Assembly (NCBI GenBank): GCA_903922175.1
Contig: CAIXSY010000024.1
Location: forward strand, 634 to 64,633
DNA length: 64,000 bases
Source of the DNA: an uncultured delta proteobacterium
GTDB taxonomy: Bacteria; Bdellovibrionota_C; UBA2361; CAIXSY01
Direction of reading: 5' to 3'
The notes below the pieces were generated by a model. It was not told the origin of the DNA. It did no database searches and saw only the letters and a list, made by a program, of their open reading frames with translations. The translations under genes were made by a program, and so were the position numbers. Positions 5,519 through 59,123 of this stretch are shown here, in pieces. The stretch's first letter is position 1; every line of letters starts with the position of its first letter.

Positions 5519-5556
5519 GCTTTTGAATATAATATAACAGTCTATAGATTGCAATA

Positions 5557-9545: not shown

Positions 9546-9602
9546 TTCTTCCGCAAGTGGACCTTTTAGTTTAAAGAGTACTTGTGGCAGAGTGCCGGGA
9601 CT

Positions 9603-17969: not shown

Positions 17970-19613
17970 ATGATGCTATCCGGGAGCGCCACACTTCGAA
18001 AACTTGCCGCTATCTCCGGACGGGAATGGGGTCTACTTGCGGCTGTGTTTTTTGCCGCCGTGCTTCGCCTCTATCACCTACCAGATCAGCTTTTTATCGA
18101 CGACGAATGGCATGCGATACATGCAGCGCTTACGCTCTCTTATTCTAAAATTCTGACAAGCTTCGGAGCCAACCACATCTCAGCACCGATTGCTCTGTGG
18201 TACCGACTGCTGATTGACAGCGTGGGACTTAACGAGTGCCTCGTCCGCTGGCCCTACTGTTTGTTTGGCGTGGCGATCGTTGCACTCGTGCCGCTGCTTT
18301 TGCGCCGATTTATCGGGCGTGAAGCTTCGACTGTGCTAGCGTGGTTGCTGGCTGTCTCCCCACTTCTCGTGTTTTTTAGTCGATTTGCGCGGCCCTATAT
18401 AATAGTTGCCCTGGTAGGCTGGATCGCTGTGTGGGCCTTTTATCACTGGTGGCGTGAGGCCCGTTTCTTTTATGGTGCACTCTATGTGGCAACGGCGACG
18501 ATGAGCGTTTGGCTACTTCCCGTGGCCGCCCCCTTTGTATACGGCCCCTTGCTGCTGAGCCTGGTAGCGCGTGTACGACCTCGAAGCGTCTGGCCTCAAC
18601 TGTCGTTTAGTCGCTGGCTTGGTGTTAGCTTCTGGACCCTTGTGGCTTTCGGCTTAACCATCGGACCAGCGCTCTTCCGAGATTTGGGGAGTCTGACGGG
18701 TAAAAGCGACAATCAGACTGTTGCCCTACACGAAATCCTCTCTGCCTTTGATATGCTTTTGGGTCATAGCAGCAGTCTTATGACTTTCCTGGTTGTTCTC
18801 CTGATCCTGAGGGGATCGCTTTGTCTATGGAAGCGTGAGAAAACACTCATGTACTATCTTCTCGCCTTAAGCGCATTGCAGGTTATCGGTGTCATTCTCG
18901 CGCAACCAGCCTACGGGTTTTTCCCCTTGGTCGTCGCACGCTATCTTTTACTCCTTCTGCCACTACTGCTAACGATGCTCGCGGTAGGGGTTACGGGAAT
19001 TTTTGATAATTGGCACGCCGTTCCTTCGACCGTGCGTAGGAGTGTTATCCCGTCGCTCTTGTGCCTCGGACTGTTTCTGGATGGCCCCTTACCGGGGGTG
19101 TATGGGGCTCCTTCAGCCTGGTTTTCTCAGGTGCTTGGATTAGCATTTCATAGAGCAAATGGTGAGAGTCCATTGCCACCCCCACCATTGGCGAGCTATG
19201 AATTCCTCGGCCGTCTACCGCGGCAGTCAGTTGCGATTATGGAGGTGAGTAATAGCTTCTTTACGCTGTGGGGCAGTGAATTACCTGCCTACGATCACAT
19301 TGCTAATCAACGGGTGCTTATCGGCATGCTCAACGGGGTATGTGGTGGGCCGCGTCCCTACGAGATCCCCTATACTGAGGAGCGTGTGCGTTTTAGCCGT
19401 TACGCGAGTGTTGGTGACGGTGAGCGTCTAAAAGCCCTCAAGGTGAACTATCTCGTATTCCATCGAAAACTTCCCTTCGATGTTTCAACCAGTATGTTTG
19501 CTATGCCACCATTAGATATTAATGCGTGTGTCGAGGAACTAACGCATCTCTTTGGTAGGCCTGTGGTTGAGGATCCTGATGTGCTCCTATTTGAGGTGAG
19601 AGGTAAAACGTGA
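17970..19613 (+). CDS. GT-C-fold membrane glycosyltransferase (GT39/PMT_2-like)
   Basis: 547 aa and polytopic. The acidic first-loop motif is LFIDDEWHAIHAA. It shares a GTGA overlap with the next GT-C gene. Confidence 0.65.
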   Translation: MMLSGSATLRKLAAISGREWGLLAAVFFAAVLRLYHLPDQLFIDDEWHAIHAALTLSYSKILTSFGANHISAPIALWYRLLIDSVGLNECLVRWPYCLFGVAIVALVPLLLRRFIGREASTVLAWLLAVSPLLVFFSRFARPYIIVALVGWIAVWAFYHWWREARFFYGALYVATATMSVWLLPVAAPFVYGPLLLSLVARVRPRSVWPQLSFSRWLGVSFWTLVAFGLTIGPALFRDLGSLTGKSDNQTVALHEILSAFDMLLGHSSSLMTFLVVLLILRGSLCLWKREKTLMYYLLALSALQVIGVILAQPAYGFFPLVVARYLLLLLPLLLTMLAVGVTGIFDNWHAVPSTVRRSVIPSLLCLGLFLDGPLPGVYGAPSAWFSQVLGLAFHRANGESPLPPPPLASYEFLGRLPRQSVAIMEVSNSFFTLWGSELPAYDHIANQRVLIGMLNGVCGGPRPYEIPYTEERVRFSRYASVGDGERLKALKVNYLVFHRKLPFDVSTSMFAMPPLDINACVEELTHLFGRPVVEDPDVLLFEVRGKT

Positions 19614-21106
19614 GAGCAGGAGCTCGGCTAGATCCCCTTCTTTCCTATCTAACCATAGTTGTGGTTGCGGCGGTCGTTGGGCATATGCTTACCGGGCTTG
19701 AGCGCAGTTTGTGGATTGATGAGCTCATTACGTATTGGGTAAGCGCGGACTCTTTCAGCGCCACACTAGATAGGGTCGCTGAGTACCAAGCCCAGGGTCC
19801 GCTCTATTTCTTGCTTATATGGGGAATGCGTCACTGTTTTGGAGAAAGCGAGATCGTCCAACGAATCCCCTCGCTTTTCGCCGGTATCGGGATTTTTGTA
19901 GTTGCCTATAGACTCGCACGGCTTTTTGTCGATCGCAGCGGTGCTGAGATATGTGTGCTCTTACTTGCCGGTGCTTCGTCGATTACCGGGGTCTTCACGT
20001 CGTCTCGTCCCTATGCCCTGGCGATATTGGCCTCACTTCTGGCGACCTACAGCCTCGTGCGCTGGATCAGATGCGGCAAGATACAGTATCAAATAATCTA
20101 TTTCCTATCACTCGTTTCCATGCTGGCGCTCCATTTCTTGTTTGCCGCTCTTATCCCGGCGCATGCTCTGTATGTCCTCGGTATAAAAGGTCGGCAGGCC
20201 TCTCTGGTTAATATCTTCGGAACAATGGGGGCAAGTCTTTTAGTTCTGACTGTGCAGATGTCCCAGCTCCTCACGACGTACTCGCGCCAGGGGGCGTATT
20301 CATTTGTAGAAGCTCCTAATTTAGCTATGGTTGTCGGGGTAGCCTTGCCACTACAGTTGCTCGTTCCGCTGCTTGGTGCTGCCGTCGTTGGCCTTATATG
20401 GACAGCGCTCTATTACAGGCAGGTCAGCCGTCCTTGGACGTTCTCCAGTGATGGAATACGGCTAACCCTCGTTTTGGGGTATGGACCGATGTTAGCCATC
20501 CTTGCCGTATCGCTATGCGGCAAGACCTCGATTTTTTGGGACCGTTATCTGTTAATGAGTCTTATTTATCCCGTATTTCTTGCTGGCTTTTGTATGCGCG
20601 CCTTGTGTCCGGCCCCGGCGGCATGGTGTATCGCTGCCTTTGGGGCGGTTACAGCGCTCCAGATACCCGTCGGCAACCGTCTTGAATATTGGCGCGAGGC
20701 CAATACCTACGCCAATGAAATAATCGCTCGCGATAAACCACTGACTATTGTGTGGATGGGCTTGGTCGAGCAGGAGGACTTAACTTGGTTTAGGAATCCT
20801 AAGCATGAGGCCTACTTTCTTTCGCTCTTGGCAAAATATCCACTCGCAGGGGAGGTGCAGTCTTGGCCGCAGCAGTTTGATGCAGTCGATTTTGACGGGC
20901 AGTATATAGGGCGCTTGGAGCTTTTAAAGACGGAGAAACGACCGGTCCTCCTGGTGATAAGAAACATATTTGACCCTTATCTTTATATGCCACCGGCTCT
21001 TGAGCGCTTCAAGGATCGCTTTGCGCGGCATGGTTTTGAAGAGAGGCTCCGGCGTTGCTTCGTGGGAATCTGTGTTGCGGAGTTTAAGGTGGGCGAAACT
21101 CACTAA
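19610..21106 (+). CDS. GT-C-fold membrane glycosyltransferase (GT39/PMT_2-like)
   Basis: 498 aa and polytopic. The first-loop motif is SLWIDELITYWVS. Confidence 0.7.
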   Translation: MRAGARLDPLLSYLTIVVVAAVVGHMLTGLERSLWIDELITYWVSADSFSATLDRVAEYQAQGPLYFLLIWGMRHCFGESEIVQRIPSLFAGIGIFVVAYRLARLFVDRSGAEICVLLLAGASSITGVFTSSRPYALAILASLLATYSLVRWIRCGKIQYQIIYFLSLVSMLALHFLFAALIPAHALYVLGIKGRQASLVNIFGTMGASLLVLTVQMSQLLTTYSRQGAYSFVEAPNLAMVVGVALPLQLLVPLLGAAVVGLIWTALYYRQVSRPWTFSSDGIRLTLVLGYGPMLAILAVSLCGKTSIFWDRYLLMSLIYPVFLAGFCMRALCPAPAAWCIAAFGAVTALQIPVGNRLEYWREANTYANEIIARDKPLTIVWMGLVEQEDLTWFRNPKHEAYFLSLLAKYPLAGEVQSWPQQFDAVDFDGQYIGRLELLKTEKRPVLLVIRNIFDPYLYMPPALERFKDRFARHGFEERLRRCFVGICVAEFKVGETH

Positions 21107-21328: not shown

Positions 21329-23443
21329 ATGCGCTATGGATCTTCTCTACGACTTTTTCTCCTCAGCATCTTGATTCTATTTCTAGAAATGATGCTTATC
21401 CGCTGGATCGGGACAGAGATTAGAATTTTTGCCTATGTGCAGAATGTTGTCCTCGTGGTGTGCTTTTTGGGGTTGGGAGTAGGGTGTGCTCGTTCGTCGC
21501 AGAAGGGGAGGCTTTGGCAGCTATGCTTGCCGTTGCTGATACTGATTATCCTCGTCAACGTTCCAGTCACGCGGAATGTTTTGCAGCTCATTAGCTCGGA
21601 CCTTTCGACGTTTGACGATACGATCATTTGGTATAAGGCCGTTGTCAACTCGGAAGTGAGCACGTTCGTTCCTATGCTTCAGGGTGTGTTCCTCGCTTTC
21701 GCCGTGTTGTTGTTAATCTTCGATGCCTTTGAAATCCTCGGAAGACACTTGGGCGCGGAGATGGCCACGTCGTCAGGCCGGATCTCTCGCTACTCGGTAA
21801 ATATCGCTGGAAGCCTCGCCGGTATCTGGCTTTTTACCGCAATGAGTTACTGTTCGAGCCCCCCGGCTATTTGGGCTATCGCTTTGGCAATCTTAATTCT
21901 CCTGAGCTTTGTCGACGAGGTCTTGGCCGAGGGAAGACTGCTACTTCTTATTGCCGCTCTCCCGATACCGTTCGTGATATACACCGAAATGGGGACAACG
22001 ACGACGTGGTCTCCCTATCAGAAGCTTTCGATGTCGCCCTACGTGGAGTCTCCGAACAGCGCACAAATGCTGGTGAATAATGTAGGCTACCAGTTGATGT
22101 TGGACTTGAGTGAAGAAAATGTGTTGGGCCACCCTGATGTTTTCTCTCCGAGTCTGCGTACCCTATCTCACTATGATATTCCATTCCGTTTTTCGCCAAA
22201 TCCGAAGAAGGTGTTACTCCTCGGAGCTGGATCGGGCAATGATGCTGCTGGCGCGTTGCGAAATGGGGCCGAACGAATTACCGCAGTGGAGATTGATCCG
22301 GTAATCATCGATCTGGGGATGCGATCTCATCCAGAACATCCCTATGCGTCCGAGCGAGTTACCGTCGTTAATGACGATGCGCGTACGTTCTTGCAGAAGA
22401 CCAACGAAACCTTCGATGTAATTATCTTTGGACTTCTCGACGCGCATACGGGGAATGCGCTCACGAATGTGCGGCTTGACCACTACATTTATACACGGGA
22501 GGCCTTGCTTCAGGCCAAGAGTAGACTGACTCCAGATGGCAAGTTGTTCCTTAGTTTCGGCATGGGATTCCCTTTTATTGCCGCGCGTATAGATCAGCTA
22601 CTCCGTGATGCTTTTGGCGTGCCCCCTCTGAGCTTTATATCCGGAACAACTCCGGCCTACGGATGGGGCGGTACTATGTTTGTGGCAGCTCGAGAGGGGG
22701 AGGTGCAGCGTGCTCTGGCCCTCGATCCGGCCCTCGCTGCCTGGATCGCGCCGCGGAAGATTGCTCATACTACTGCCACAATTGTCCCCACCGATGACTG
22801 GCCGTATCTCTATCTTTCTGCAGCACGCATTCCATCACTGTATTATGTACTTGGCGCCGTGATAGTTGGAGTATCCGCCTTTAGAGGGCGCGGGCTTTGG
22901 CGGCAGGGGCTTGCCCAATGGGGAATGTTTGAAGGACATCTGTTTCTACTTGGTTTTGCCTTTTTACTTCTTGAGGTCCAGAACATAAACAAAGCGGCTC
23001 TAGTGTTTGGGAATACCTGGACGGTTAACGCGATAGTCGTTAGTGGGATCATGATAATGTCACTCTTGTCGAATGCTGTTGCCGCCCTGTTCCCGAGGAT
23101 CTCTAGCACAATTATTTGCAGCGGGTTGGTACTTTCTCTCGTTCTGCTGATTGCACTCCCGGTTTCATTTTTTGGATTGCTTGGCGTACCATTACGCCAG
23201 CTGCTCTACGGCATCGTCGTCTCACTTCCAGTCTTTTTCAGCGGTATCCTGTTTATACGGGCGTTTAATACTTCACGTAACCCCGCACAAGCCCTGGCCG
23301 CAAACCTCCTGGGCGCCTTGTTCGGTGGCCTTCTCCAGTCACTCTCCTTTGTCACGGGAATGCAGACCCTCTTTCTCCTCACTATCGTCGTTTACCTTGG
23401 TGCAATTATAACAAGGCCAAAGGGGGAGGAGGCTCTTCACTAA
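21329..23443 (+). CDS. Polytopic membrane protein with an embedded spermidine-synthase-like (aminopropyl/methyltransferase fold) domain, paralogue 1
   Basis: 704 aa. The N-terminal TM block contains EMMLIRWIGTEIRIFAYVQN. The central Rossmann block reads VLLLGAGSGNDAAGAL, AVEIDP, VVNDDARTFL, FDVIIFGLLDAHT. TDDWPYLYL and a C-terminal TM block follow. Confidence 0.85.
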   Translation: MRYGSSLRLFLLSILILFLEMMLIRWIGTEIRIFAYVQNVVLVVCFLGLGVGCARSSQKGRLWQLCLPLLILIILVNVPVTRNVLQLISSDLSTFDDTIIWYKAVVNSEVSTFVPMLQGVFLAFAVLLLIFDAFEILGRHLGAEMATSSGRISRYSVNIAGSLAGIWLFTAMSYCSSPPAIWAIALAILILLSFVDEVLAEGRLLLLIAALPIPFVIYTEMGTTTTWSPYQKLSMSPYVESPNSAQMLVNNVGYQLMLDLSEENVLGHPDVFSPSLRTLSHYDIPFRFSPNPKKVLLLGAGSGNDAAGALRNGAERITAVEIDPVIIDLGMRSHPEHPYASERVTVVNDDARTFLQKTNETFDVIIFGLLDAHTGNALTNVRLDHYIYTREALLQAKSRLTPDGKLFLSFGMGFPFIAARIDQLLRDAFGVPPLSFISGTTPAYGWGGTMFVAAREGEVQRALALDPALAAWIAPRKIAHTTATIVPTDDWPYLYLSAARIPSLYYVLGAVIVGVSAFRGRGLWRQGLAQWGMFEGHLFLLGFAFLLLEVQNINKAALVFGNTWTVNAIVVSGIMIMSLLSNAVAALFPRISSTIICSGLVLSLVLLIALPVSFFGLLGVPLRQLLYGIVVSLPVFFSGILFIRAFNTSRNPAQALAANLLGALFGGLLQSLSFVTGMQTLFLLTIVVYLGAIITRPKGEEALH

Positions 23444-24773
23444 TACTTCTCGGGGAGCGCTTAAAGCACCATCCCAGACCGACTATCCCAATTGATACCA
23501 AGGAGCCTTTCCAGTCATAGACGAAGGCATTGTAGGCGAGGTAGAGAGCTGAAATGCAGAATATGGACATGCTGAGGATATTAAAGGGAAATTGGCGCCG
23601 GTTGGTATTGGGGCTGTTCTTATAGCGCAAGATAAGAACAGAAAAACCGGTGAGTGTAAAAAAGATCCATACCACGGCCGTCGTGTAGACCACGGTGCTA
23701 CTAAAGGAGCCCGATAGAACTACGATGAAGATGCTCATCAGTGCTTGGACTAGAAGCGCTCGAAGAGGGGTTCCGCGTGCGCTATTCCATCCCCCAAGGA
23801 TACGAAACAAGGGGTAGTCTCTGCCTAAGACATGCGAGATGCGTGATCCGGTGAGAATCAAGCCATTCATAGCGCCCATCGCAGAAAGGCATATCAGTGC
23901 ACTCATAAATCTTGGCCCCCAGTGTGGGAACACGACTGCCAGCGTGTCGGATGCGGCTATCGTTGATTGGGTGAGTCCGGTGTATCCGAGAGCCCACACG
24001 AAGGCGAAGTTGGTTAGTAGGTAGAGGCAGGTGACTATGAGCACGCAGAGGAGAATTGAACGTGAGAGATTCTTTTCGGGATGCCGCACTTCTGCAGCAA
24101 CGTAGCCTATCTCCTGCCAGCCGCCGTACGTGAAAAGCACCAAAATGAGGGCGAGGCCGAAATTCTGGTTTTTAGAATTTGCGACAGTGACCGATGAGAT
24201 CGATTCACTTGGAGTAACGACGACTGCCGCGACAAATATTGCGAATAGGCCCAGAATTTTTAGTAAGGTTAGGACGTTTTGAGCCCAGGCACTGGCACTG
24301 ACTTTGATGCAGTTAATACCGGTAAGGAGTACCACCCCGCCAGTTGCGAATAGTACCGTGCTGCTACCCTCGAGCAAGGTGCCCCGAAAGGGGGACCACA
24401 ATCCCTCCAGATAATGCGCGAATGGAAAGGCCATGGCCGCAATCGAGCCTGGTCGAATTATGGCAAATGATGCCCATGCGAAAAGATATCCGACCGTGTC
24501 GCCGTAAGCTTTGGAGAGGTAGATGTAGTCACCACCGTTTTGTGGGTATGTCGAGGCTAATTCTGCATAACAGAGTGCTCCTGCCAAAGACAGCACCCCT
24601 CCGAGTGCCCAGACTGTGAGCATACTAACTGTTCCAGGCAGACAGCTCGCCACAAGTGGGGCTGTTTCATAGATACCCACACCAATGACAATGCCCACCA
24701 TGACTGCGGTTGAATCTAGCAGCGAGAAGACAGGCTGTGGTTTTCTTAGTTGATTCTTGGGCTGAGATATCAT
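23406..24773 (-). CDS. APC-superfamily (amino acid/polyamine/organocation) permease
   Basis: 455 aa with about 12 hydrophobic segments. The N-terminal LLDSTAVMVGIVIGVGIYETAP and GGDYIYLSKAYG blocks are typical. Its 3' end overlaps the previous gene by 38 nt. Confidence 0.85.
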   Translation of the reverse strand: MISQPKNQLRKPQPVFSLLDSTAVMVGIVIGVGIYETAPLVASCLPGTVSMLTVWALGGVLSLAGALCYAELASTYPQNGGDYIYLSKAYGDTVGYLFAWASFAIIRPGSIAAMAFPFAHYLEGLWSPFRGTLLEGSSTVLFATGGVVLLTGINCIKVSASAWAQNVLTLLKILGLFAIFVAAVVVTPSESISSVTVANSKNQNFGLALILVLFTYGGWQEIGYVAAEVRHPEKNLSRSILLCVLIVTCLYLLTNFAFVWALGYTGLTQSTIAASDTLAVVFPHWGPRFMSALICLSAMGAMNGLILTGSRISHVLGRDYPLFRILGGWNSARGTPLRALLVQALMSIFIVVLSGSFSSTVVYTTAVVWIFFTLTGFSVLILRYKNSPNTNRRQFPFNILSMSIFCISALYLAYNAFVYDWKGSLVSIGIVGLGWCFKRSPRSISEEPPPPLALL

Positions 24774-24936
24774 AACGACTTCTAGACCATTATCAGGCGA
24801 GGGGAGGAACCCATATTACTTTCTTCTCTTTTCGTCCCAGCTTTTGCAAGTTACGATGCACGTGATTCGGTTAAGGCTCGTTAGCTTCAACAAAACAGTT
24901 GCCTCGTATTAACATGCCCAAGACGGAGATAGCGCT

Positions 24937-25809
24937 ATGGTTCGTTCCTTGATTGTGGCCCTTGTTTTTAGCATCGGGTTCATCGGCTACTACAATTATG
25001 ATACGTTTACGCGTTATGTGCACTATGAGTTGTGGGGCTCGATCAATGTTGATGGGGCGACCATCTTCCTTGATCCCAAGGATTTGGCGGGGACTCCGTA
25101 CTTGCTCGCCGTGCAGCGCAATACAGGAGAGGACGTGGCTCTTCGCACCTTTATAAAGCCTGGCGATACGGTAATCGACGTAGGGGCTGATATAGGCTGG
25201 TTTACCGTACTTGCTGCGCAGCTAGTCGGTGAGCGTGGAAAGGTCATTGCCTTTGAGCCTGATCCGGAGACGTTTGCTATTTTGCAACGCAATGTTGCTG
25301 TCAATGGCTTTAAAAATGTGGTGCTCGAGCAGAAGGCACTATCCAATAAACATGATCGGCTAAAACTATTCCTGGCGCAAGAGAATAGAGGGGATAATCG
25401 CATCTTCGATTTTGGAGATAAGCGCCAATCTGTCGAGGTTGAGGCGTTATCGTTCGATGAGTATGCACGCTCACTTAATCCCCCGCTTAAGGTCGACTTT
25501 GTGAAGATCGATACGCAAGGTGCTGAAGGGGTCATTATCGAGGGGATGAAGGAGACCTTTCAGCGTTTTCCGGAGTTGAAGGTGGACATCGAGTTTTGCC
25601 CGGCGTTTCTTACCAAGAGCGGCTACGAGCCGGCAAAGCTTCTCCAAACTTTTGAGCAGTGGGGATTCGAGTTTTGGAATATTGACTCGTTTGCCTTACC
25701 TTTCAGGCCAGCGACATCGGCACAGTTACTCTCTGAGCTGACGCCTCAAAATGGGCGTCAGGTGAATTTGCTCCTTCGACGACCGGCATGTCATCGTGCA
25801 GAATCGTAG
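24937..25809 (+). CDS. FkbM-family methyltransferase
   Basis: The SAM-binding block is VIDVGADIGWFTVLAA. FVKIDTQGAEGVIIEG is the hallmark FkbM block. Confidence 0.85.
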   Translation: MVRSLIVALVFSIGFIGYYNYDTFTRYVHYELWGSINVDGATIFLDPKDLAGTPYLLAVQRNTGEDVALRTFIKPGDTVIDVGADIGWFTVLAAQLVGERGKVIAFEPDPETFAILQRNVAVNGFKNVVLEQKALSNKHDRLKLFLAQENRGDNRIFDFGDKRQSVEVEALSFDEYARSLNPPLKVDFVKIDTQGAEGVIIEGMKETFQRFPELKVDIEFCPAFLTKSGYEPAKLLQTFEQWGFEFWNIDSFALPFRPATSAQLLSELTPQNGRQVNLLLRRPACHRAES

Positions 25810-25829
25810 GCATTCAACGACGTGGTGCG

Positions 25830-26897
25830 TCAGGGATCTTTCGGCAAGATGGACGTTGAAAGATCGATAAGAGCACGAGCGAGCTTTAAATGTCCGCTCG
25901 CTCTTGGGTGTCCATCCCCTTTGAAAAAGTCTTCTTCAGTCTGGTTAATGAAGTACGGTGTGGCGTCAACGATGTGGTTGCCTTGCTGGGATAGTCCTTG
26001 GACCACAAGATATCGCCAGGTGTCTGATGCCCGTGTGGTAACGTATTCGTTGATTTCATCGACACGTGGAACATAGAGAAACCCGACGACCAATCCCTCA
26101 CGTTCGGCGAACTGAATCATAGGATGCACTACCTTTGTCAACAGTACTTCGACGGCTTGTTTTCTCCTCTCGACGCTCTCTTTCACCGTTGTTCGTCGAA
26201 GGTCAGCTGCAAGAAAGGCTGAAATTTGAGAGGACAAGAAACTCAAGGCTGCGGAAGGCGCCACTATGTGACGAGAGAAAAATGCAGGCAGCCCCGTTTT
26301 TTCAAAAACATATTTCTTTAAGAGAAATTGCTCGGGAAGAGCTAACGGCGGAGTGTCGCTGGTGCGTAACCCTTCAGAGAAATACAGCTGTGGGCCGGCC
26401 TGCTCAAAGCAAAAGATCACAGCGTCGAGGGGAGGGTATTTTCCCTGAACGCCAAAATACTGTGGAAAGTAGTATTCGGAAAAAGCGAGTTGAATGGGGG
26501 AATAGTTTCCACTCCGACCGAGTGCGAGGAATTGAAGAGAGGGGGCAATTCGGTGTGCTTGCTCCGGGAATGTCGAGTCAATTTCAACCTGCAGCGCTTC
26601 AATAAAGCTATCACCCACAACGGCAATTCGGTGACGACACTCTGGACAGGAGGCAAACGACGAGGCATGAAAACCTTCTGCGTTTTTCCTAATAATCTGT
26701 GAGAATTCCTTTTTTACCCAAGGTGCCCCCCTATATATGGTGACGCCTTCGGCGGTATTGAGGTGATAATTTTCGACGGGGTTGTTTAATTCAAAATAAT
26801 TTTCAATATGTAAGATACCATCGATTGCAAAAATAAGCAGCGCCAGCGAAACGGCACAGTTCACAAGCTCAATGGCAATGTCGCGAAGCCTAATCAT
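25830..26897 (-). CDS. Membrane-anchored SGNH/AlgJ-AlgX-like hydrolase or acyl-transfer protein (paralogue 3)
   Basis: The N-terminal helix is VNCAVSLALLIFAI. SGNH blocks are IAVVGDSFIEA and KGDGHPRASGH. It lies directly downstream of the MBOAT gene in the same orientation. Confidence 0.55.
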   Translation of the reverse strand: MIRLRDIAIELVNCAVSLALLIFAIDGILHIENYFELNNPVENYHLNTAEGVTIYRGAPWVKKEFSQIIRKNAEGFHASSFASCPECRHRIAVVGDSFIEALQVEIDSTFPEQAHRIAPSLQFLALGRSGNYSPIQLAFSEYYFPQYFGVQGKYPPLDAVIFCFEQAGPQLYFSEGLRTSDTPPLALPEQFLLKKYVFEKTGLPAFFSRHIVAPSAALSFLSSQISAFLAADLRRTTVKESVERRKQAVEVLLTKVVHPMIQFAEREGLVVGFLYVPRVDEINEYVTTRASDTWRYLVVQGLSQQGNHIVDATPYFINQTEEDFFKGDGHPRASGHLKLARALIDLSTSILPKDP

Positions 26898-26906
26898 ATT
26901 ATGTTA

Positions 26907-28307
26907 TTAGAACTGGAAGTAAACAAAATCCCCTCCAGAGAAATTACCGAACAGTAACGTAGCCAGTACGTAGCCCCAGCACAGAGTCCAGAACGGAAAA
27001 CTATGCTTAAGAATAACACTATCGTACTCAAGCTTGAAATGTGAATGCACGTAATCTAAGGTCAGGGTTACGCAAGACAATCCCACAACATAGGCCACGG
27101 GCTGAGTGATCGTCCCAGGATGTCCGAGTTGCTTGAGAAGGATGAGGGCATCGTTGACTGAGGTCGCACGAAAAAATATCCAGGTGAAGCATACGAGGAG
27201 AAATGTGGAGGGGATAGAGATACTCGATCGCAGCCAAGGAGGTGTACGAGCCCAGAACTTAGGCGGTGAGATGAGATGAGCACAAACTATGTAGACACCG
27301 TGGATTAACCCCCAAAGCATATACGTCATATTGGCGCCGTGCCAAAGCCCACCCAGAACCATCGTCAACATTATATTGCGGCACGTCGTCAGCACGCCGC
27401 TTCGATTGCCTCCGAGGGAGATATAGAGGTAATCCCGCAACCACGTCGATAGAGAGATGTGCCAGCGTCGCCAAAAATCACGTATTCCCGCGGCAAAATA
27501 GGGAGAATTGAAGTTTGTACCGAGATCGTAGCCAAGGATGCGTGCAAATCCACGCGCCATATCGGTGTATCCTGCAAAATCGCCATATATCTGAAATGCG
27601 AAGGCAATGGTTGCCACCACGACATCAATCTGAGATTGACCTGCTGGTCTTGCATAAACTTGCTCAACGATAGGAGCTAAATTGTCGGCGATAGCAATCT
27701 TTTTAAAAAGTCCAGAGCAAACGAGGAAGATACCAGATCTTATCTGTAGCAGAGAAACTTTGGGACCATCCTGCAACTGTCTTAAGAGGTACGATGCTTT
27801 AACAATTGGCCCGGCAACGAGGTGAGGAAAAAAAGCTACATAGAGCGCGTAGGAGAGGAGATTCTTGGCAGGGGTCATTTTCCCTCGGTAGACGTCCACG
27901 GTATAGGTAATGGACTGAAAAGTGTAGAACGAAACCCCGAGGGGAAGTGGAATGTGATAGCTGTACGTCATCCATTGCGGGGCATTTCCACCTAATAGAT
28001 CTGCGCCCAAGCCCAGAGCCCAGGCGATATACTTGAAAAAAAATAAGATAGATAGGTTAGTTCCGACAGAAGCAACGAGGAGAAGTTTCTTCAATGTCGG
28101 ATCGCGTTGGCAGACTATCTGCTTGGCAAGAAAATAATCGAAGCAACTCACGCCAATCAGAACCAGAAGGAGCCGAGCGCTAAACCAGGCATAGAACAGG
28201 TAGCTTGCGCCTAAGAGGACTGATTTCCTAAAGGTGGAATCGCGAGAGTACGCGAAAAACAGCGTACCTACGAAAAGGAGGGCGAATTCTGTGGTGTGAA
28301 AAAGCAT
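26907..28307 (-). CDS. MBOAT-family membrane O-acyltransferase (AlgI/DltB/PatA-like)
   Basis: 466 aa and polytopic. FWRRWHISLSTWLRDYLYISLGGNR and GGLWHGANMTY (conserved His) are MBOAT signatures. Confidence 0.9.
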   Translation of the reverse strand: MLFHTTEFALLFVGTLFFAYSRDSTFRKSVLLGASYLFYAWFSARLLLVLIGVSCFDYFLAKQIVCQRDPTLKKLLLVASVGTNLSILFFFKYIAWALGLGADLLGGNAPQWMTYSYHIPLPLGVSFYTFQSITYTVDVYRGKMTPAKNLLSYALYVAFFPHLVAGPIVKASYLLRQLQDGPKVSLLQIRSGIFLVCSGLFKKIAIADNLAPIVEQVYARPAGQSQIDVVVATIAFAFQIYGDFAGYTDMARGFARILGYDLGTNFNSPYFAAGIRDFWRRWHISLSTWLRDYLYISLGGNRSGVLTTCRNIMLTMVLGGLWHGANMTYMLWGLIHGVYIVCAHLISPPKFWARTPPWLRSSISIPSTFLLVCFTWIFFRATSVNDALILLKQLGHPGTITQPVAYVVGLSCVTLTLDYVHSHFKLEYDSVILKHSFPFWTLCWGYVLATLLFGNFSGGDFVYFQF

Positions 28308-28419
28308 GTTCCCTTAACGAGGGCAGCCCCTTTTCGCCATAGCGCATAGCACCTGCTCTCCCGATGTGTGCAAATTATCAAGAATGTCATCAAGTCACAA
28401 GTTGGAGAAGTATGTATTC

Positions 28420-29331
28420 CTATTCTGAGGAGTGCGACAAGATCTTACTTTTTAGGAAGCCCTCAACGCAATCGGCCCATAGTTGGTGCCCCTTTGGATT
28501 AGGGTGTCCTTCGCCTTCGACGGTTAGATCGGGGGTGAGCGTCATCGTGCAATCCGCAAAAGGAATATTTTTTGACTTAAGGAAGTTGGCGTATGGCTGC
28601 AGTTCGTTATCAAGGTTCGTTAGAATCACCACCCCGAAATTACGGCATCGTTGTTCGCACCGCCTGGCCATTTCTAGGATCAAAAGTTGAGTGGCGCGAT
28701 CCTTGTAACCAGAGCGCTGCCTCGTGACGAGGGACTGAATCCCATTTTGCAGCACATTCATAAAAGCCGAGCGATTGCTCAAAGGCCATATCCAATGTTC
28801 CGCGGGGGGATGGTAGGATAATGCGTTGTTGCCATCCAAAGTCACATAGGGTACTTGGACATGCCCCCGTCGCGAGTGCGCAGTCAGAAACCTTAGCCAC
28901 TGTTCTGTGGCCACATTTCTGTCAGCATCAACGGTACTGAAGCCATAAATTACCGTCGGTCTATTCTGTGTTTTTGTGAGAAGTCTATCGAGCAACATGA
29001 GGGACTGATAGGTGCTGTGTCCTCCTACCCCATAATTTTCGACAGCGTATTCTGGAAGCCGGTTTTGTACTTTCCATAAAAAAGTTTCTTCGTCGGACAC
29101 TGCCCACCCGTTAACGAAGGAATCTCCGAGGAACATTATTTGCTGCTTGTCGGAGCCCCTGCTGCCGTTATCTCTTCGTCCATCAGCCAAGTAGGTAACT
29201 TTCGTGCTTGAGCCAGACGGCGACCAAGGAGGAATCAAATACGAGCCTGGCTTGTTCCGCCATCCTAATTCCGGATCCGGCTCCAGAGTTGCCGGCTCAT
29301 TGGCCGAAGTTCTTGAATATCCCCACAGCAC
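28420..29331 (-). CDS. SGNH/GDSL-family hydrolase (paralogue 4), apparently separated from its own N-terminal membrane anchor by a frameshift
   Basis: SGNH blocks are MFLGDSFVNGW, NYGVGGHSTYQS and GEGHPNPKGH. The ORF starts at a GTG without an anchor. A 56-codon ORF from ATG ~29435, in another frame, encodes the expected anchor VILCAGIVLAVLAGEIYARLIGFE. Confidence 0.7.
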   Translation of the reverse strand: MLWGYSRTSANEPATLEPDPELGWRNKPGSYLIPPWSPSGSSTKVTYLADGRRDNGSRGSDKQQIMFLGDSFVNGWAVSDEETFLWKVQNRLPEYAVENYGVGGHSTYQSLMLLDRLLTKTQNRPTVIYGFSTVDADRNVATEQWLRFLTAHSRRGHVQVPYVTLDGNNALSYHPPAEHWIWPLSNRSAFMNVLQNGIQSLVTRQRSGYKDRATQLLILEMARRCEQRCRNFGVVILTNLDNELQPYANFLKSKNIPFADCTMTLTPDLTVEGEGHPNPKGHQLWADCVEGFLKSKILSHSSE

Positions 29332-29679
29332 ACTTCAAATCCGATAAGCCTGGCGTATATCTCCCCCGCCAATACAGCAAGGACAATCCCAGCGCATAAT
29401 ATTACTGAATTGACGACTCTCTGAGACGTGCCCATATGGAACTATGGCAATTAATAATTCACGGGGTCTTCTATATTTATAGCAAGAAGAAGCCTTATCG
29501 CACTAGACCTACCCCAAAGAAGTTTCCTCCAAGGAGCGATGCGATTCTTAGCAATTCTTGGATAAAAAAGCTCAGCATAGGTGAAAGAACTTATTTTGGG
29601 TAGAACAGTTCGCCATTGTACTTCGTCCGTAAAATAAAAGTTCCTTGTGTTTCTGGGTATTGACCTCATTAGGTGGGTT

Positions 29680-30774
29680 TTATTGCTGATCTGGAATAAC
29701 GTGAGGTGACCCCCGGCTACTCAGGTGACCCCACGCCAGAGCGAGCAAGGGGACGGCTGCATACCAACGCTCGTACCACGCGAAGAACAAAAAGGGCATT
29801 GAGAGCGCAAGGCCAAGCAAGAGGAGGTGATACACATACCTTCTGACAATTTTTGTAAGATATTCGGCGATGGAGCAGTAAGTTGGAAAGAGAAGCACCA
29901 GGGAATGGCTCCACATATAGGGAGCTATGGTTAAGGAAAGAGGGACAATTACCTGCAAGAAATTCTTTGTCGAGAATCGGGTGCGTAATCCGTAAGAAAA
30001 TGCGACTAGGCAACCGATTGTTGGTAGCAGGAGCGACAAATTGCCCCCCCATAGGCTGCGAAATACTTGAGACAACGATGCTCCGGGGAGTGAAAAACCC
30101 GAATCGAAGGTGCCGTGCCTGAGGAAGGAGAGGGTAATTCCAGGCACAAGTGCCTCGCCGAGAAGGAGCTGGAGGGAACCTCCAGCTATGGCCCCTCCAA
30201 TTAAGGCAACGCTCTTGTTGTGCGCCGTGGCCCCCAAAAGATAGGCATATACCCCCATAAAGAGGTTCGGCTTACATAGTGAGAGCGAAAGCACTACACC
30301 TGCCCAAAATAATCTCTGTTGCAGCAATAGGAGAGAGGCGCCGAGGAGTGTTAACAGCAGAAGGAAGTTGTATTGCCCCCAATATATGTTAGACCAATAC
30401 CACGGGAACAGGAGGACGAGAACGAGAGCTGCAGCATTGGACTTTTTTTTATGATGTGGAGCAAGTAGTCCCTGAATCCGAGTCAAGATGATGGCACTTG
30501 CCGCAGCAATTATGCAGGGCCATGCTACTCGAGCGGCCGAAAAAGGAATCAGTGAAAGAATGGCCCATAGCCACAGCGCCCAGGGCGGAGTAAGTACGGC
30601 ATGGGCGTACTCATCCGATGGCCACCCCAATTGATACATGAGCGATGCCAGGGCATTTTGATCATAGACATCCTGTCCATGACGGGCAAGAAATCCACTA
30701 GCCCATAGGTAAAAGACGTCATACCCGAATACGTCTTGGACGGTGTGGGTAGCGGTAGGGTCGAGGATGTCCAT
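29680..30774 (-). CDS. GT87/DUF2029-like GT-C membrane glycosyltransferase
   Basis: 364 aa and polytopic. The first loop is DVFGYDVFYLWASGFLARHGQDVYD. The C-terminal PYMWSHSLVLLFP block is shared with 44604..45860 and with the fragment at 39320..39793. Confidence 0.7.
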   Translation of the reverse strand: MDILDPTATHTVQDVFGYDVFYLWASGFLARHGQDVYDQNALASLMYQLGWPSDEYAHAVLTPPWALWLWAILSLIPFSAARVAWPCIIAAASAIILTRIQGLLAPHHKKKSNAAALVLVLLFPWYWSNIYWGQYNFLLLLTLLGASLLLLQQRLFWAGVVLSLSLCKPNLFMGVYAYLLGATAHNKSVALIGGAIAGGSLQLLLGEALVPGITLSFLRHGTFDSGFSLPGASLSQVFRSLWGGNLSLLLPTIGCLVAFSYGLRTRFSTKNFLQVIVPLSLTIAPYMWSHSLVLLFPTYCSIAEYLTKIVRRYVYHLLLLGLALSMPFLFFAWYERWYAAVPLLALAWGHLSSRGSPHVIPDQQ

Positions 30775-31014
30775 GAAGATCCGTTAGTCGCTAAGACGTT
30801 TAATAAATCTGCAGCCTCATGCCCAGCAATCCGCGGACCACGATAGCAGTGGTGTTTTTAATGTTCAACAGTGATATGGGCAGGGAGGGTACGGGGGCGA
30901 TAGCTCAGCGTCTGCCCTCTGTCGCGCTAAGTCTCCCAAAAAATTACATAGGTGACGCAAGGACCCTGAGTATTTGAGCTTCCTGTAATATTGGAGCTTT
31001 CCCTTTGAAATTAT

Positions 31015-33189
31015 TTAAGAAGGTGAGGTGGCCTTCTTGGTTAGTTGGGCACCACGTATGCTTGTGGCGATCCATGCCGCAGCATATAGCATGATGATGA
31101 CCAGGGTTAGCGCGCGCAGTCCCCATACAAAGGAAAGGACCTGCAGGAACCCACCCGCTACGGCGCCGAGTAAATTGATTCCCAAGGCAAGATTTTTGTC
31201 CTGCGTTTGATCAAATGATCCTGCAAAAATAGAGCTGCTAAAAAAAACTGGGGCCCCGCTTATCAATGCAACCGCCAGTAGTCGCGGTACATACGAGAGA
31301 GTGTAGAGCTGGCTGAAGTCGAGTTTGTATACGAGGAGAAGTGTCACGACGAGCACACCGAAGAGGACGTGTCTGTTGATATGCAGATAGTTTCGCAGCA
31401 ACGTTGCGACAAAGGCCATAAAAAGTACTCCCGAAACGACTGCGGCGCTTACTATCCAGGTTGTTCCACAGAGCAGAGAGGATCGGTTGACAAAATAGAC
31501 TTCCAGAAGCAAAAACGCTGCGCCGAGGAAGAAGAAATGCCACTGATCGCTGTGCCATCGCCAAAAGGTGGCCTGCACGTGCGCCGATCGTCCACCCCAA
31601 AAATAGAGAGCCAGAGTGAGTAAGAAAAGGAAAGCAAAAAGAGAGGGGATCGAGGGGTTTTCTAGGTAAAGATAGGGCCAGTCATCGGTTGAAATTGCGA
31701 ATGATTTGGGACTATTTGACGTAGGCGAGCTTATCATTACGCTAACGACACCATCTGGAAGAAGAGTCCGAAAGCGCTGCAGGCGGTCAGGTGGACCGAT
31801 TACAAATGAGACCGCTCCCGTGTCATATGTGGTCCGTCGTGCTGAAATAGCGAGTGGTGAACTTCCGAAAACGCTGCTGAGCATCTGTTGAATGCGCATG
31901 AATATAAAATTCTCTTGTACGGCAAACCCCAGTACCATCACCCCATCCTTCTTTAGAAGACGCTGTGCGTCACGGAAGCTCTCTTCAGTATAGACATAGT
32001 GATCAAGTCTAATGTTCGAATAGGCAGGTACGGTGTGGGAGTCGAGGAAGGCAAACACAATCAAGTCGAATTTCTTCTTACTTGAACGGAAATACGCACG
32101 AGCGTCGTCATTTACCACGGTAACCCGATCGACTTGGTCGTACGGATGCTCCGGGTGAAAACGCTTACCTATCTCTATAATAGCAGGATCGATATCAACC
32201 GACGTGACATGACGAGCCCCCCAACGCAGAGCTGCTGCAGTATCGTTGCCGGCGCCGGAGCCAACAATCAGGACATTCTCTGGGTTGGGCATCACGAGGT
32301 ACGGAAGATCGTGATCTCCAATAGCGGCTACTGAATTGTGAAACACCTCAGGATGTGCCGCTACCGTGCTGGGAAGTAGGTCGAACATAAACTGGTAGCC
32401 GATATTATTCACGTTGACCTCAAACGAGTTCGGCAAGGAGGTGTGCTGCTTCACGGAAAGCTTTTGATACGGGGACCAGATCTCAAGGATACTGTCGTTG
32501 AGGGGCAAGGCGACACTCCCTCCTAAGACAAAGATTGGGATAATCCACCAGCGCCAGGCTTGGCCGCTAAATACCTGCGAGCGCACAAGGAATAGAATAG
32601 CCAGTGCAAGGCTGCCCCACGCCACCGGCGGAAGCGATGCTAGGCCAACCAGAGCAAAGGCCCAAACTCCGGCCAGGCTCCCCATGATATTCGCACCGTA
32701 CAACGCGAGCGGACGGGAAGTTCGGCCAAAAGCTGAATTTAACGCAACGCCAAAAGGCAGCATCACCTGCCAAACCAGGAGCATGAGAATGAAGCTCAGG
32801 AAGAGTCCTAAGGTAAAGCTCGCGGCGCTTGCTCCCAGTGACGATAGCGCTCCCGGATACCAGATCTGCAAACCATCAAATACGGTAAGGAACAGGCTTG
32901 TCTGCGCGAAAGTCTCTTTAAACGGCGGGAAGGTCAAAAAAGCCCACAATGCGGAGAAGGCGAGTAGAGGGGCTTTGTTGCCACGCAGGACGCCTTTTCC
33001 AAGAAAACCAACTCCCATTGCTAAAAAACAGACGACAAGGATTGAGTTTTGGAGATAGGCGAAAATTCGCACCTCGGTGCTCACCCAGCGGATGAGGAAC
33101 ATCTCCATGAACAATGCTGCGCAGCTCACCGCGAAAACAAATGAGAGCTCTTGGACAGATGAACAACTTTTTAGGTCTTGTTGGCACAT
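31015..33189 (-). CDS. Polytopic membrane protein with an embedded spermidine-synthase-like domain, paralogue 2
   Basis: 724 aa. Blocks are EMFLIRWVSTEVRIFAYLQN, WSPYQKLS, VLIVGSGAGNDTAAAL, SVDIDP, VVNDDARAYF, FDLIVFAFLDSHT and TDDWPYLYL. It is collinear with 21329..23443 but on the opposite strand. Confidence 0.85.
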   Translation of the reverse strand: MCQQDLKSCSSVQELSFVFAVSCAALFMEMFLIRWVSTEVRIFAYLQNSILVVCFLAMGVGFLGKGVLRGNKAPLLAFSALWAFLTFPPFKETFAQTSLFLTVFDGLQIWYPGALSSLGASAASFTLGLFLSFILMLLVWQVMLPFGVALNSAFGRTSRPLALYGANIMGSLAGVWAFALVGLASLPPVAWGSLALAILFLVRSQVFSGQAWRWWIIPIFVLGGSVALPLNDSILEIWSPYQKLSVKQHTSLPNSFEVNVNNIGYQFMFDLLPSTVAAHPEVFHNSVAAIGDHDLPYLVMPNPENVLIVGSGAGNDTAAALRWGARHVTSVDIDPAIIEIGKRFHPEHPYDQVDRVTVVNDDARAYFRSSKKKFDLIVFAFLDSHTVPAYSNIRLDHYVYTEESFRDAQRLLKKDGVMVLGFAVQENFIFMRIQQMLSSVFGSSPLAISARRTTYDTGAVSFVIGPPDRLQRFRTLLPDGVVSVMISSPTSNSPKSFAISTDDWPYLYLENPSIPSLFAFLFLLTLALYFWGGRSAHVQATFWRWHSDQWHFFFLGAAFLLLEVYFVNRSSLLCGTTWIVSAAVVSGVLFMAFVATLLRNYLHINRHVLFGVLVVTLLLVYKLDFSQLYTLSYVPRLLAVALISGAPVFFSSSIFAGSFDQTQDKNLALGINLLGAVAGGFLQVLSFVWGLRALTLVIIMLYAAAWIATSIRGAQLTKKATSPS

Positions 33190-33385
33190 AACTTTTCCTT
33201 ATGGTGCGCCTGTGCTGTTATTGCGCATGAGATTGTTTGCAACAGCCTGAAAGTACCGTAAATAGGGTGTGCATGCTAGCCCCGCCGCTCTGTTGTTGCC
33301 AAGAAAACCACTGGCCGCTTCTGATCCGGGTGGATAGACTCTCTAAGACGAACACTTGTTATGTGTTACGCTTCATCTCAACTCA

Positions 33386-34423
33386 ATGCGCACGCCTAAA
33401 CCCATAGTTCTTTGGCTCTCGTATTTGGCCCCGCTGGGGATAAGCCTCCTGCTGTGTGAAGCCGTGTTGTGGTTGGTTAGCTACCCAAGTTGGTATGGGT
33501 CGAGAACCACTATGGAGCCTCCCATGTATCTCGAGCCAGACGTCCATCTCGGATGGCGGCATCGGCCCGGTTTTTACGAGTTTTACTCCCCATTCAAACA
33601 CGGAAACGCGGTAATGACCTTTGATCGAAACGGATCGAGGAGGAACATTCTGGCAACAAGCACAGTTCCAGCGGCGCTCTGGCTGTTTGGCTGTTCTTTT
33701 GTGGAGGGTTTTTCGCTGAGTAACGAGGAGACTTTCGCTTGGGATTTGGCGTCTCGTTTTAAGGGCGAGTATGCGGTGGTAAATTTTGGCACCGCCGGTT
33801 ATGGGACGTACCAAAGTTTACTGCTCATGAAACAGAAGCTGCAGGAGCAATCCGCGCTAGGGCTCATTACCCCGAAGTGGATCGGGTACCTCCTTAACGA
33901 TTTTCACGAGCCGCGCAACACTGGGGCCTATTCTTTTATGCGTCTCTTGAGTCCGCCCAAGGGTGGAAAGATTCCGTTATTGCCCTATTGTAAGCTTGAC
34001 CGGGAGGGCAGTTTGTCGTGTGACTACGCCGCAGCGGAGGTTATTTGGTCCATATCGTGGTATTCGCGGGTCGTGGCACTTATCAATGAAGCTTATTTCA
34101 CCTTCACGCTTCGCTCTAGAAACCAGAATGGCGAGACGGTGACGGGACAGCTGATCAAGCAGATGCATGAATTGGCACAAGGAGCCAATAGCCGCTTTGG
34201 CGTGATACTGTTTGCACTTTCGGCCGAGAAAAAAGCAAATTACGAGCGTTTCCTGCGTGGTGCGGGGATAGAATTTGTTGATTGCGACCGTGAGGAGAGG
34301 CTCTCTCCTGAGTTTTCCTTGCCGGACGGGCATCCTAATGCAGCCATGAATAAGCTGATCGCGCAGTGTGTGGACGCCTATTTGCGGACCTCCGTCATTT
34401 CCCAAGCAGGAGGGATTCGGTAG
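33386..34423 (+). CDS. Membrane-anchored SGNH/GDSL-family hydrolase (paralogue 5)
   Basis: I use the ATG at 33386, because track position 33356 is a TTG. The anchor is IVLWLSYLAPLGISLLLCEAVLWLV. SGNH blocks are LWLFGCSFVEGF, VNFGTAGYGTYQS and PDGHPNAAMN. Confidence 0.7.
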   Translation: MRTPKPIVLWLSYLAPLGISLLLCEAVLWLVSYPSWYGSRTTMEPPMYLEPDVHLGWRHRPGFYEFYSPFKHGNAVMTFDRNGSRRNILATSTVPAALWLFGCSFVEGFSLSNEETFAWDLASRFKGEYAVVNFGTAGYGTYQSLLLMKQKLQEQSALGLITPKWIGYLLNDFHEPRNTGAYSFMRLLSPPKGGKIPLLPYCKLDREGSLSCDYAAAEVIWSISWYSRVVALINEAYFTFTLRSRNQNGETVTGQLIKQMHELAQGANSRFGVILFALSAEKKANYERFLRGAGIEFVDCDREERLSPEFSLPDGHPNAAMNKLIAQCVDAYLRTSVISQAGGIR

Positions 34424-58738: not shown

Positions 58739-58749
58739 AAAATTCTTCC

Positions 58750-59046: not shown

Positions 59047-59123
59047 ATTGACAGTATGGCACATTGGGCCAATAACCTCAAGCAACAATTGTGCCTTTAC
59101 GCCCTCTGTCATCCCGAAGAGCG

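Follow-up and report, generated by a model that had tools for sequence, protein, structure and literature searches.

Proteins that join a membrane-spanning part to a domain resembling the spermidine synthase SpeE are of a known but uncharacterised kind, and we describe here a variant of it from an uncultured delta proteobacterium. The window, by which we mean the whole stretch of 64,000 nucleotides that was analysed (assembly GCA_903922175.1, contig CAIXSY010000024.1, positions 634 to 64,633), encodes two long proteins, A and B, in which such a domain lies between two blocks of membrane helices, and a third, C, which carries it at the C-terminal end. We read A and B as membrane-coupled transferases of the S-adenosylmethionine (SAM) type, not polyamine synthases, with the catalytic domain on the outer face of the membrane, and would give this reading a probability of roughly 0.35.

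The closest described relatives are the fusions of a major facilitator superfamily (MFS) domain to a spermidine synthase-like domain that are collected in NCBIfam NF037959, of which C is a member. Like A and B, these fusions join a polytopic domain to a SpeE-like domain ending in TDD(W/Y), and the acid of the glycine loop is absent from both families; unlike them, A and B carry the domain centrally (residues 225–500 of 704), not C-terminally, and their membrane blocks have no significant similarity to C. A 2019 study by Li and colleagues reportedly found that MFS fusions co-occur with functional genes for S-adenosylmethionine decarboxylase (AdoMetDC) and that one failed to complement a speE deletion in Escherichia coli, and is said to have proposed that they aminopropylate a substrate other than putrescine. 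Unlike the published clusters of MFS fusions, neither family here adjoins AdoMetDC or DUF350 genes. An earlier reading of the window from its DNA alone (the original prediction) had A, B and C as possible membrane-bound transferases adding an aminopropyl or methyl group to an envelope glycan or lipid, and is therefore close to what is reportedly published for the C-type architecture. It also held that such proteins have no assigned function, and indeed no functional study of either architecture was found in the literature searched. The same searches returned nothing relevant on membrane-bound or MFS-fused spermidine synthases but PMC11237479, which cites the study of Li and colleagues (Biochem J 476:2579) for “aminopropylation of other substrates”. 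The central insertion of the domain in A and B and its outward-facing topology appear undescribed in this literature.

Soluble enzymes of the SpeE/PABS type, for instance those of Thermus thermophilus (1uir, 3anx), E. coli (3o4f) and human (2o06), share with A and B the two-domain fold, the glycine-rich loop, the ribose-binding acid, the adenine-binding Asp of the DDAR motif and an ARL..YT.E segment. A and B differ from them in lacking the glycine-loop acid, in that the YHE/YQE polyamine motif is not conserved, in having L-D-(S/A)-H-T in place of D-x-x-D-P, and in that the domain is embedded in a membrane protein and predicted to be periplasmic. In these enzymes decarboxylated SAM is bound through its amine by the glycine-loop Asp, which is thought to keep SAM out by repelling its carboxylate (PMC3725402, PMC6514230), and in a plant spermidine synthase the single change D103I is enough to abolish aminopropyl transfer and to give a weak SAM-dependent methyl transfer (PMC3725402). 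Plant putrescine N-methyltransferase (PMT) resembles A and B in having the SpeE scaffold with a non-acidic glycine-loop residue and the adenosyl site kept (PMC3725402); at this position PMT has Ile, as do 5 of 36 members of the C family, and the others mostly have Ser, Thr or Ala. Unlike A and B, PMT is a soluble enzyme of the cytosol that shares about 60% identity with plant spermidine synthases and keeps the putrescine site; the identity of A and B to any SpeE is only about 20%, and their acceptor site is a different one.

Two further systems offer analogies. In plants, the MFS protein GoSAMT supplies SAM to the Golgi for the methylation of polysaccharides in the lumen (10.1101/2021.07.06.451061; PMC9946043); the likeness to A and B is one of function only, the plant transporter and transferases being separate proteins, and eukaryotic. 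AT3-SGNH and MBOAT-SGNH systems (PMC7448272), both of which occur in the same locus as A and B, offer a conceptual analogy in that their polytopic membrane domain hands a group from a donor in the cytoplasm to a catalytic domain facing outwards, which decorates envelope glycans, though they have other folds and acyl rather than alkyl chemistry, and that A and B translocate a group is a hypothesis.

Architecture and kinship of the three proteins

The open reading frames (ORFs) of A, B and C are intact and lie where first proposed. They and their parts are as follows (TM, transmembrane helix).

21329..23443 (+), protein A, 704 residues
21329..21985 (+), N-terminal membrane block of A, residues 1–219, TM1–7 (hydropathy, helix list)
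22001..22828 (+), SpeE-fold domain of A, residues 225–500 (PF01564 E = 4.7e-13, Foldseek, profile alignment to 1uir)
22835..23440 (+), C-terminal membrane block of A, residues 503–704, TM8–14 (model, hydropathy)
31015..33189 (-), protein B, 724 residues
31651..32484 (-), SpeE-fold domain of B, residues 236–513 (PF01564 E = 2.5e-15, phmmer against 1iy9)
60187..62214 (-), protein C, 675 residues
60190..60957 (-), SpeE-like domain of C, residues 420–675 (hhalign against the domain of A, column frequencies)

As proposed, A and B are collinear paralogues, alignable from end to end with 39% identity (BLASTP E = 8e-145), and the motifs quoted for them were all found in the translations: EM(M/F)LIRW..TE(I/V)RIFAY.QN, WSPYQKLS and TDDWPYLYL, and from the Rossmann part GAGSGND/GSGAGND, VEIDP/VDIDP, VVNDDAR and FD.I.F..LD(A/S)HT. 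Hydropathy lays out both as seven membrane helices, the SpeE-fold domain and seven further helices, and the AlphaFold2 model of A agrees, with a beta/alpha domain at residues 225–500 between 7+7 helices (predicted local distance difference test score, pLDDT, 86.5; predicted TM-score, pTM, 0.87). A homologue search with A gave 2748 database matches, nearly all about 45% identical and full length; most of the aligned family members are 44–47% identical to A and the nearest database relatives 54–59%. The nearest database relative of B is only about 41% identical, and since no closer one was found we take B to be a lineage-specific, diverged duplicate.

The proposal that all three proteins are paralogues stood for the pair A and B, whereas with C only the soluble domain is common. 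The motifs quoted for C (GLGSGT, WDINP and IIIIDAFNGDSIP) were found in its translation, and the domain further shows GDGR, IIID558AFNGD563SIP and WTDDY. Aligned by hhalign, the domains of A and C match with a probability of 96.5% and E = 7.6e-10 from the glycine loop through the common TDD(W/Y) motif and, judging from this profile comparison, are homologous. The membrane domain of C gave E = 0.15–0.68 against the A/B blocks in profile–profile comparison, which is not significant. C passes the NF037959 model (“fused MFS/spermidine synthase”) with 63.7 bits against a cut-off of 40, a model that neither A nor B matches, and lies under the gathering threshold of Pfam Spermine_synth (PF01564) with 17.8 against 22.9 bits. 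It is laid out as a 12-helix MFS fold, a 13th helix and the SpeE-like domain; the model of residues 1–415 (pLDDT 88.2) has MFS transporters as all of its top 50 Foldseek matches in the PDB (E from 2e-5, TM-score 0.45–0.58, about 400 columns).

The SpeE-like domain and its active site

Both central domains are over the threshold for Spermine_synth, with 49.5 bits for A (residues 284–408) and 56.9 bits for B (residues 295–464), and a profile search against 1uir gave E = 9.5e-18. When the model of A was compared with the PDB by Foldseek, the 50 best matches were all aminopropyltransferases, with 232–308 aligned columns that include the N-terminal beta domain, so that the whole two-domain SpeE architecture appears to be present in A. 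The full model compared with BFVD in the same way found only methyltransferase-fold matches.

Conservation was counted over 40 aligned sequences of the A family, numbered as in protein A, and over the C family (36 sequences in the count made for topology), 76 aligned sequences in all. The domain of A carries the WSPYQK hairpin, G299xGxGxD305, E321-I-D323-P, HPExPY, D349-D-A-R, F-D363, L-D371-(S/A)-H-T, NxRLDHYxYTxE and D489-D-W-P-Y; that of B has GSGAGND, VDIDP, VVNDDAR and FLDSHT. Some 90 columns of the A-family alignment are invariant, across both membrane blocks and the soluble domain. G299, G301, G303, D305, D323, D349, R352 and D363 are found in 40 of 40, and the ribose-binding acid at position 321 is Glu in 34 and Asp in six. 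The invariant D349 is the Asp that binds adenine N6, and its DDAR motif is the same as in the “DDARAY” of Thermus SpeE. A dead domain, which had been named as an outcome that would speak against a transferase, is thus not what we found: the motifs of the nucleotide pocket (GxGxGxD, E/D321, DDAR) are kept in the 40 sequences and, being invariant or nearly so, argue that the domain is alive.

The fate of the glycine-loop acid is the opposite. Its position is occupied by S302 in A and A313 in B, by Ser (30), Thr (5), Ala (4) or Val (1) in the A family (acidic in 0 of 40), and by Ala (13), Thr (13), Ile (5), Ser (2) or Val (2), never an acid, in the C family. The acid specific to decarboxylated SAM, whose retention had been named as a thing to check, is therefore missing from all 76 aligned sequences, and by these motifs the domain of A and B is one in which the adenosyl half of the SpeE site is kept and the acid that defines an aminopropyltransferase is gone.

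The acceptor side is changed as well. It had been noticed that the putrescine-site DSxDP is altered in A and B, and we find D-x-x-D-P replaced by L-D371-(S/A)-H373-T374, which follows a strand three residues longer. D371 is invariant; in the HMMER alignment to 1uir it falls on the second Asp and G368 on the catalytic one, at odds with hhalign against C, which aligns D371 to the first Asp of C, D558. The A family has an invariant Q231 in the N-terminal hairpin and does not conserve the polyamine motif YHE/YQE. Around the former polyamine site lies an invariant polar set comprising H334, E336, Y339, N380, R382, D384, H385, Y388, T389 and E391; as the alignment has it, family-specific invariant polar residues (in HPExPY, LD(S/A)HT, NxRLDHYxYTxE and DDWPY) take the place of the polyamine pocket.

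Scores against established families give a similar picture. The NCBIfam equivalogs for aminopropyltransferases (PRK00811, TIGR00417, PRK03612) yield 38–63 bits against cut-offs of 250–472. B is over threshold for Methyltransf_25 (32.9 > 27), Methyltransf_11 (27.7 > 21.2) and Methyltransf_31 (27.3 > 27), and A, with a generic methyltransferase score of 26.9, is slightly under 27; GxGxG, motif I of class I SAM-dependent methyltransferases, is invariant. The sources of the relatives name them “spermidine synthase” or “methyltransferase domain-containing protein”, names that are probably wrong or uninformative.

That A and B might be bona fide membrane-anchored synthases of spermidine or another polyamine is suggested by the first of these names and by the Spermine_synth matches over threshold. 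It would require a site that has lost the acid, the YHE/YQE motif and the normal DSxDP to work with scores far below every equivalog cut-off, and a related fusion reportedly did not replace speE; we regard it as highly improbable.

A second alternative, the aminopropyl form of the original prediction, is that they are membrane-bound aminopropyltransferases, moving a cationic aminopropyl group from decarboxylated SAM onto an envelope glycan or lipid in the manner of 4-amino-4-deoxy-L-arabinose (Ara4N) or phosphoethanolamine. The structural matches to aminopropyltransferases, the invariance of Q231 and of one motif-IV Asp (D371), the presence of the invariant D305 near the missing acid, and the reported tie of related MFS fusions to AdoMetDC with a proposed non-polyamine substrate all point this way. 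Aminopropyl transfer nevertheless looks quite unlikely, because the glycine-loop acid is never present, because its loss abolishes the reaction in spermidine synthase (PMC3725402), and because no AdoMetDC gene was found in the 64-kb window; nor was one found in nine annotated homologue contexts, and the equivalog scores count against it too.

Membrane blocks and predicted topology

Topology was predicted from the charge bias of short loops, from hydropathy and from the AlphaFold2 helices. In the A family the short loops hold on average 13.2 Lys and Arg residues on the side opposite the domain and 5.0 on the domain side, with the bias present in 40 of 40 sequences, from which the positive-inside rule predicts an extracytoplasmic domain. 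A similar result is obtained for the C family, which has 13 helices (13.3 against 2.5, bias in 36 of 36). Both termini of MFS proteins are cytoplasmic, and the 13th helix of C would therefore carry its SpeE-like domain to the outside. In A, TM7 and TM8 form two extra helices bracketing the domain, a pair that, going by the model, would not be needed if the domain were inserted on the cytoplasmic side. Additionally, a C homologue of 840 residues (P0187) has a TPM domain (PF04536) fused right after the SpeE-like domain with no helix between; TPM domains are usually extracytoplasmic, and if this one is, the fusion gives weak support to an outward topology. A prediction of the face that bears the domain had been proposed as a check, and its outcome, which had not been foreseen, is that the SpeE-like domains of A, B and C are predicted to face the periplasm.

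If this prediction were mistaken, the domain would be cytoplasmic and the proteins ordinary membrane-tethered SAM methyltransferases, acting on a lipid or a lipid-linked glycan intermediate at the inner leaflet. Such enzymes would account for the intact SAM-binding motifs, the hydrophobicity of TM7 is no more than moderate, with prolines breaking the helix in the model, and all SAM enzymes of bacteria known to us are cytoplasmic. They would have to be reconciled with a charge bias seen in every sequence of two independent families, with the MFS fold and 13th hydrophobic helix of C that place the domain outside independently, with the bracketing helices of A, and with the TPM fusion, in so far as its TPM domain is extracytoplasmic; we hold this alternative to be unlikely.

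Invariant polar residues of the A family concentrate in the outer loops and at the junction of domain and membrane. In the N-terminal block E20, R25, W26, T29, E30, Y36, Q38 and N39 lie round the first outer loop, and in the C-terminal block H537, E549, T563, W564 and N659 are invariant. No PDB sequence was matched by a profile of the A/B membrane part. We also considered whether the blocks are GT-C glycosyltransferases, which have a long first outer loop with juxtamembrane helices and a catalytic acid, and rejected this, the first outer loop here having only 9 residues and no GT-C Pfam family matching at E <= 0.1. The YSVNxAGSLxG of TM5 resembles the ALGANLxGALxG of TM13 (A residues 143–165 and 644–666; 21755–21823 and 23258–23326), with hhalign giving E = 0.0014 over 23 residues at a probability of 18%, which is statistically weak. 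This, together with FLE..LIRW in TM1 and FLLLEVQN in TM9, hints that the two blocks may derive from a duplicated six-helix unit.

Genomic context

Within the window, about 9.5–58 kb is one glycan island. It holds some ten polytopic GT-C-like genes, four of which match PMT_2 or GT87 and six of which have no family match, along with PglF-, PglD- and DegT-like amino-sugar genes, a Wzx flippase, LicD, and GT1 and GT2 enzymes. The features around A and B and in the rest of the island are listed below.

17970..21106 (+), two overlapping PMT_2-like GT-C genes directly upstream of A (Pfam E = 8.5e-4 and 1.9e-8)
23406–24773 (-), APC-family amino-acid permease (L-type amino acid transporter in NCBIfam, E = 2e-61, under cut-off)
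24937..25809 (+), FkbM-type methyltransferase between A and B (Pfam Methyltransf_21, E = 3.7e-19)
25830..30774 (-), co-directional array downstream of B (Pfam), with GT87 at 29680..30774, GDSL/SGNH at 28420..29331, MBOAT at 26907..28307 and a 355-residue ORF without family match
12178–13794, 13791–15218, 34366–35817, 35797–37305, 37390–38799 and 39933–40793, six polytopic ORFs without Pfam or NCBIfam match
16626–17765, AT3 acyltransferase
26907–29331, MBOAT and GDSL/SGNH
9582–10721, 15302–16477 and 33356–34423, three more SGNH-like ORFs
47237–52260 (-), co-directional block with Wzx flippase, LicD, SAM methyltransferase, Asp/Glu racemase, cytidylyltransferase and HAD hydrolase

Each of A and B had been said to lie next to a GT-C gene, and this holds: beside A is the PMT_2 gene at 19610..21106 (E = 1.9e-8), and beside B the GT87 gene at 29680..30774 (E = 2.5e-10). 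Neither in the 222-bp gap from the PMT_2 genes to A nor, on the minus strand, between B and GT87 was a terminator-like site found, and co-transcription of A and B with the GT-C genes is possible; scans for promoters and terminators around both genes were at chance level. The permease converges on A, overlapping its 3′ end by 38 bp.

From 12178 to 45950 GT-C-like polytopic genes are unusually dense; with PMT_2 and GT87 genes beside them, they suggest that an elaborate glycan is built on the outer face from lipid-linked sugars. To judge by their families, the AT3, MBOAT and SGNH-like genes amount to several systems for the O-acylation of glycans within one locus, and the AT3 and MBOAT/SGNH systems, like the GT-C-like enzymes, act on the outer face; two of the three further SGNH-like ORFs match the LA_2486 SGNH family weakly. 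The block at 47237–52260 looks like a route to a CDP-activated glycan decoration, possibly one linked through a D-amino acid or a phosphate.

C stands at the edge of the island, flanked by toxin–antitoxin modules, and thus in a mobile-looking region outside the glycan operons; AdoMetDC, DUF350 and DUF4178 genes were sought near it and none was found. Toxin–antitoxin or abortive-infection modules surround both the island and C (474–926, 3921–5554, 58430–59112 and 62259–63059), made up of HipA with a helix–turn–helix (HTH) protein, a HigB-like protein with an HTH protein, AbiEii and an addiction-module antidote. Upstream of the island are also an SNF2/SWIM helicase (1197–3953, +) and an ERCC4 nuclease with an HhH2 domain (6258–6965, -), which at 235 residues is of a size like archaeal XPF.

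Elsewhere, relatives of A and B occur in at least 571 GTDB species genomes, from Planctomycetota, Anaerolineales, Desulfobacterota, Myxococcota, Acidobacteriota, Gemmatimonadota and Verrucomicrobiota, with Chloroflexota also listed, and the family counts thousands of metagenomic members. Two copies on separate contigs were seen in a Phycisphaerae genome (S.5.sp1_bin.29, loci L012 and L057) and in an Anaerolineaceae genome (Bin_61_36, loci L039 and L070), so that duplication in the A/B family is not peculiar to the window.

We surveyed six annotated contexts of the A family and three of the C family, and scanned with Pfam the ORFs neighbouring homologues at up to 77 genome loci. A single A-family context of the six has a GT-C association, namely contig_9907 of a Planctomycetota metagenome-assembled genome (locus L005), where one GT87 gene precedes the homologue and two follow it, and an FkbM gene adjoins this array. 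Among 118 nearest-neighbour ORFs at 64 loci no Pfam family occurs more than five times and no GT-C family is in the top 25, and of the 24 polytopic ORFs within 5 kb at the 77 loci three match GT87, two of these again in contig_9907. When every protein of the window was compared by tblastn with 80 homologue loci, the search proved insensitive for GT-C genes, missing the known GT87 genes of locus L017. The neighbours in the three C-family contexts are likewise unrelated. The original prediction had made a conserved tie to glycan genes a test of itself, and across the family such a tie was found at about two of the 77 loci, an outcome that counts against the prediction for the family as a whole: the link is recurrent but rare, a property of particular loci rather than of the family.

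Genes that mostly stand alone among unrelated neighbours, as in both families, are common for transporters, and this brings in a further explanation, that the domain is a non-catalytic module for ligand binding or gating in a transporter or sensor, which would capture SAM, methylthioadenosine (MTA) or spermidine in the periplasm and pass it to the membrane domain or regulate that domain. The MFS transporter fold of C fits with this, as does a site that has kept its adenosine-binding motifs and lost the acid specific to aminopropyl transfer. A module that only binds would not lead one to expect the catalytic-looking invariant set of H334, E336, Y339, D371, H373, T374, N380, R382, D384, H385, Y388 and E391, or a gene embedded among glycan-building enzymes in two lineages, and we think it doubtful, though it has an appreciable chance of being right.

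Discussion

In the reading we prefer, that of A and B as outward-facing transferases of the SAM type, the SpeE-fold domain between the two seven-helix blocks would be displayed on the extracytoplasmic face of the inner membrane, and the membrane core would either deliver a donor from the cytoplasm or present a lipid-linked acceptor to it, there to modify an envelope glycan or a lipid-linked intermediate. Methyl transfer would be the likeliest chemistry, given the missing acid and the precedent of PMT, with transfer of a 3-amino-3-carboxypropyl or aminopropyl group less likely. In this window a GT-C-rich glycan locus would have taken in two diverged copies and, as both sit there, the acceptor would locally be the glycan built by it. 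We infer catalysis, the identities of donor and acceptor and any transport role of the membrane domain from the features described above. Of the idea of a membrane-bound transferase acting on an envelope glycan or lipid, the SAM-type pocket and the local glycan island are borne out, whereas aminopropyl chemistry and a family-wide glycan tie are not.

Several points weigh against this reading. Alignments differ on whether D371 corresponds to the catalytic Asp or to the second one, and the invariant D305, three positions past the missing acid, might restore binding of decarboxylated SAM. The topology is predicted, and presupposes that TM7, TM8 and TM13 are true spans. To speak of an MFS-like conduit in A and B is an analogy, since comparisons of their membrane blocks with C and with the PDB are not significant, and the support for a glycan acceptor is local, most members of the family standing alone beside unrelated genes. 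Finally, a domain in the periplasm makes any chemistry with SAM or decarboxylated SAM depend on export of the donor; no extracytoplasmic SAM-dependent enzyme is known to us in bacteria, nor is SAM known from the periplasm.

A more specific form of the preferred reading meets this last point by making A and B “export-and-transfer” enzymes, whose transporter-like core would move SAM, or a donor derived from it, across the cytoplasmic membrane and directly into the fused periplasmic SpeE-fold transferase, which would then alkylate envelope glycans or lipids. We offer it as a speculation, improbable as it stands. If it is true, bacteria would here have their first SAM-dependent modification system outside the cytoplasm, and the MFS–spermidine synthase fusions would gain a testable explanation as a class.

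An intact SAM-type pocket on a domain consistently predicted to be periplasmic is a surprising combination, and one that lends itself to direct tests. Should the domain only bind its ligand, the outcome would be more modest, a new accessory domain of transporters. Should outward topology and SAM-type pocket both hold, bacteria would be putting an alkyl donor from the cytoplasm to use beyond the cytoplasmic membrane, and A and B would represent a new class of envelope modification alongside AT3, MBOAT, EptA and ArnT-type systems.

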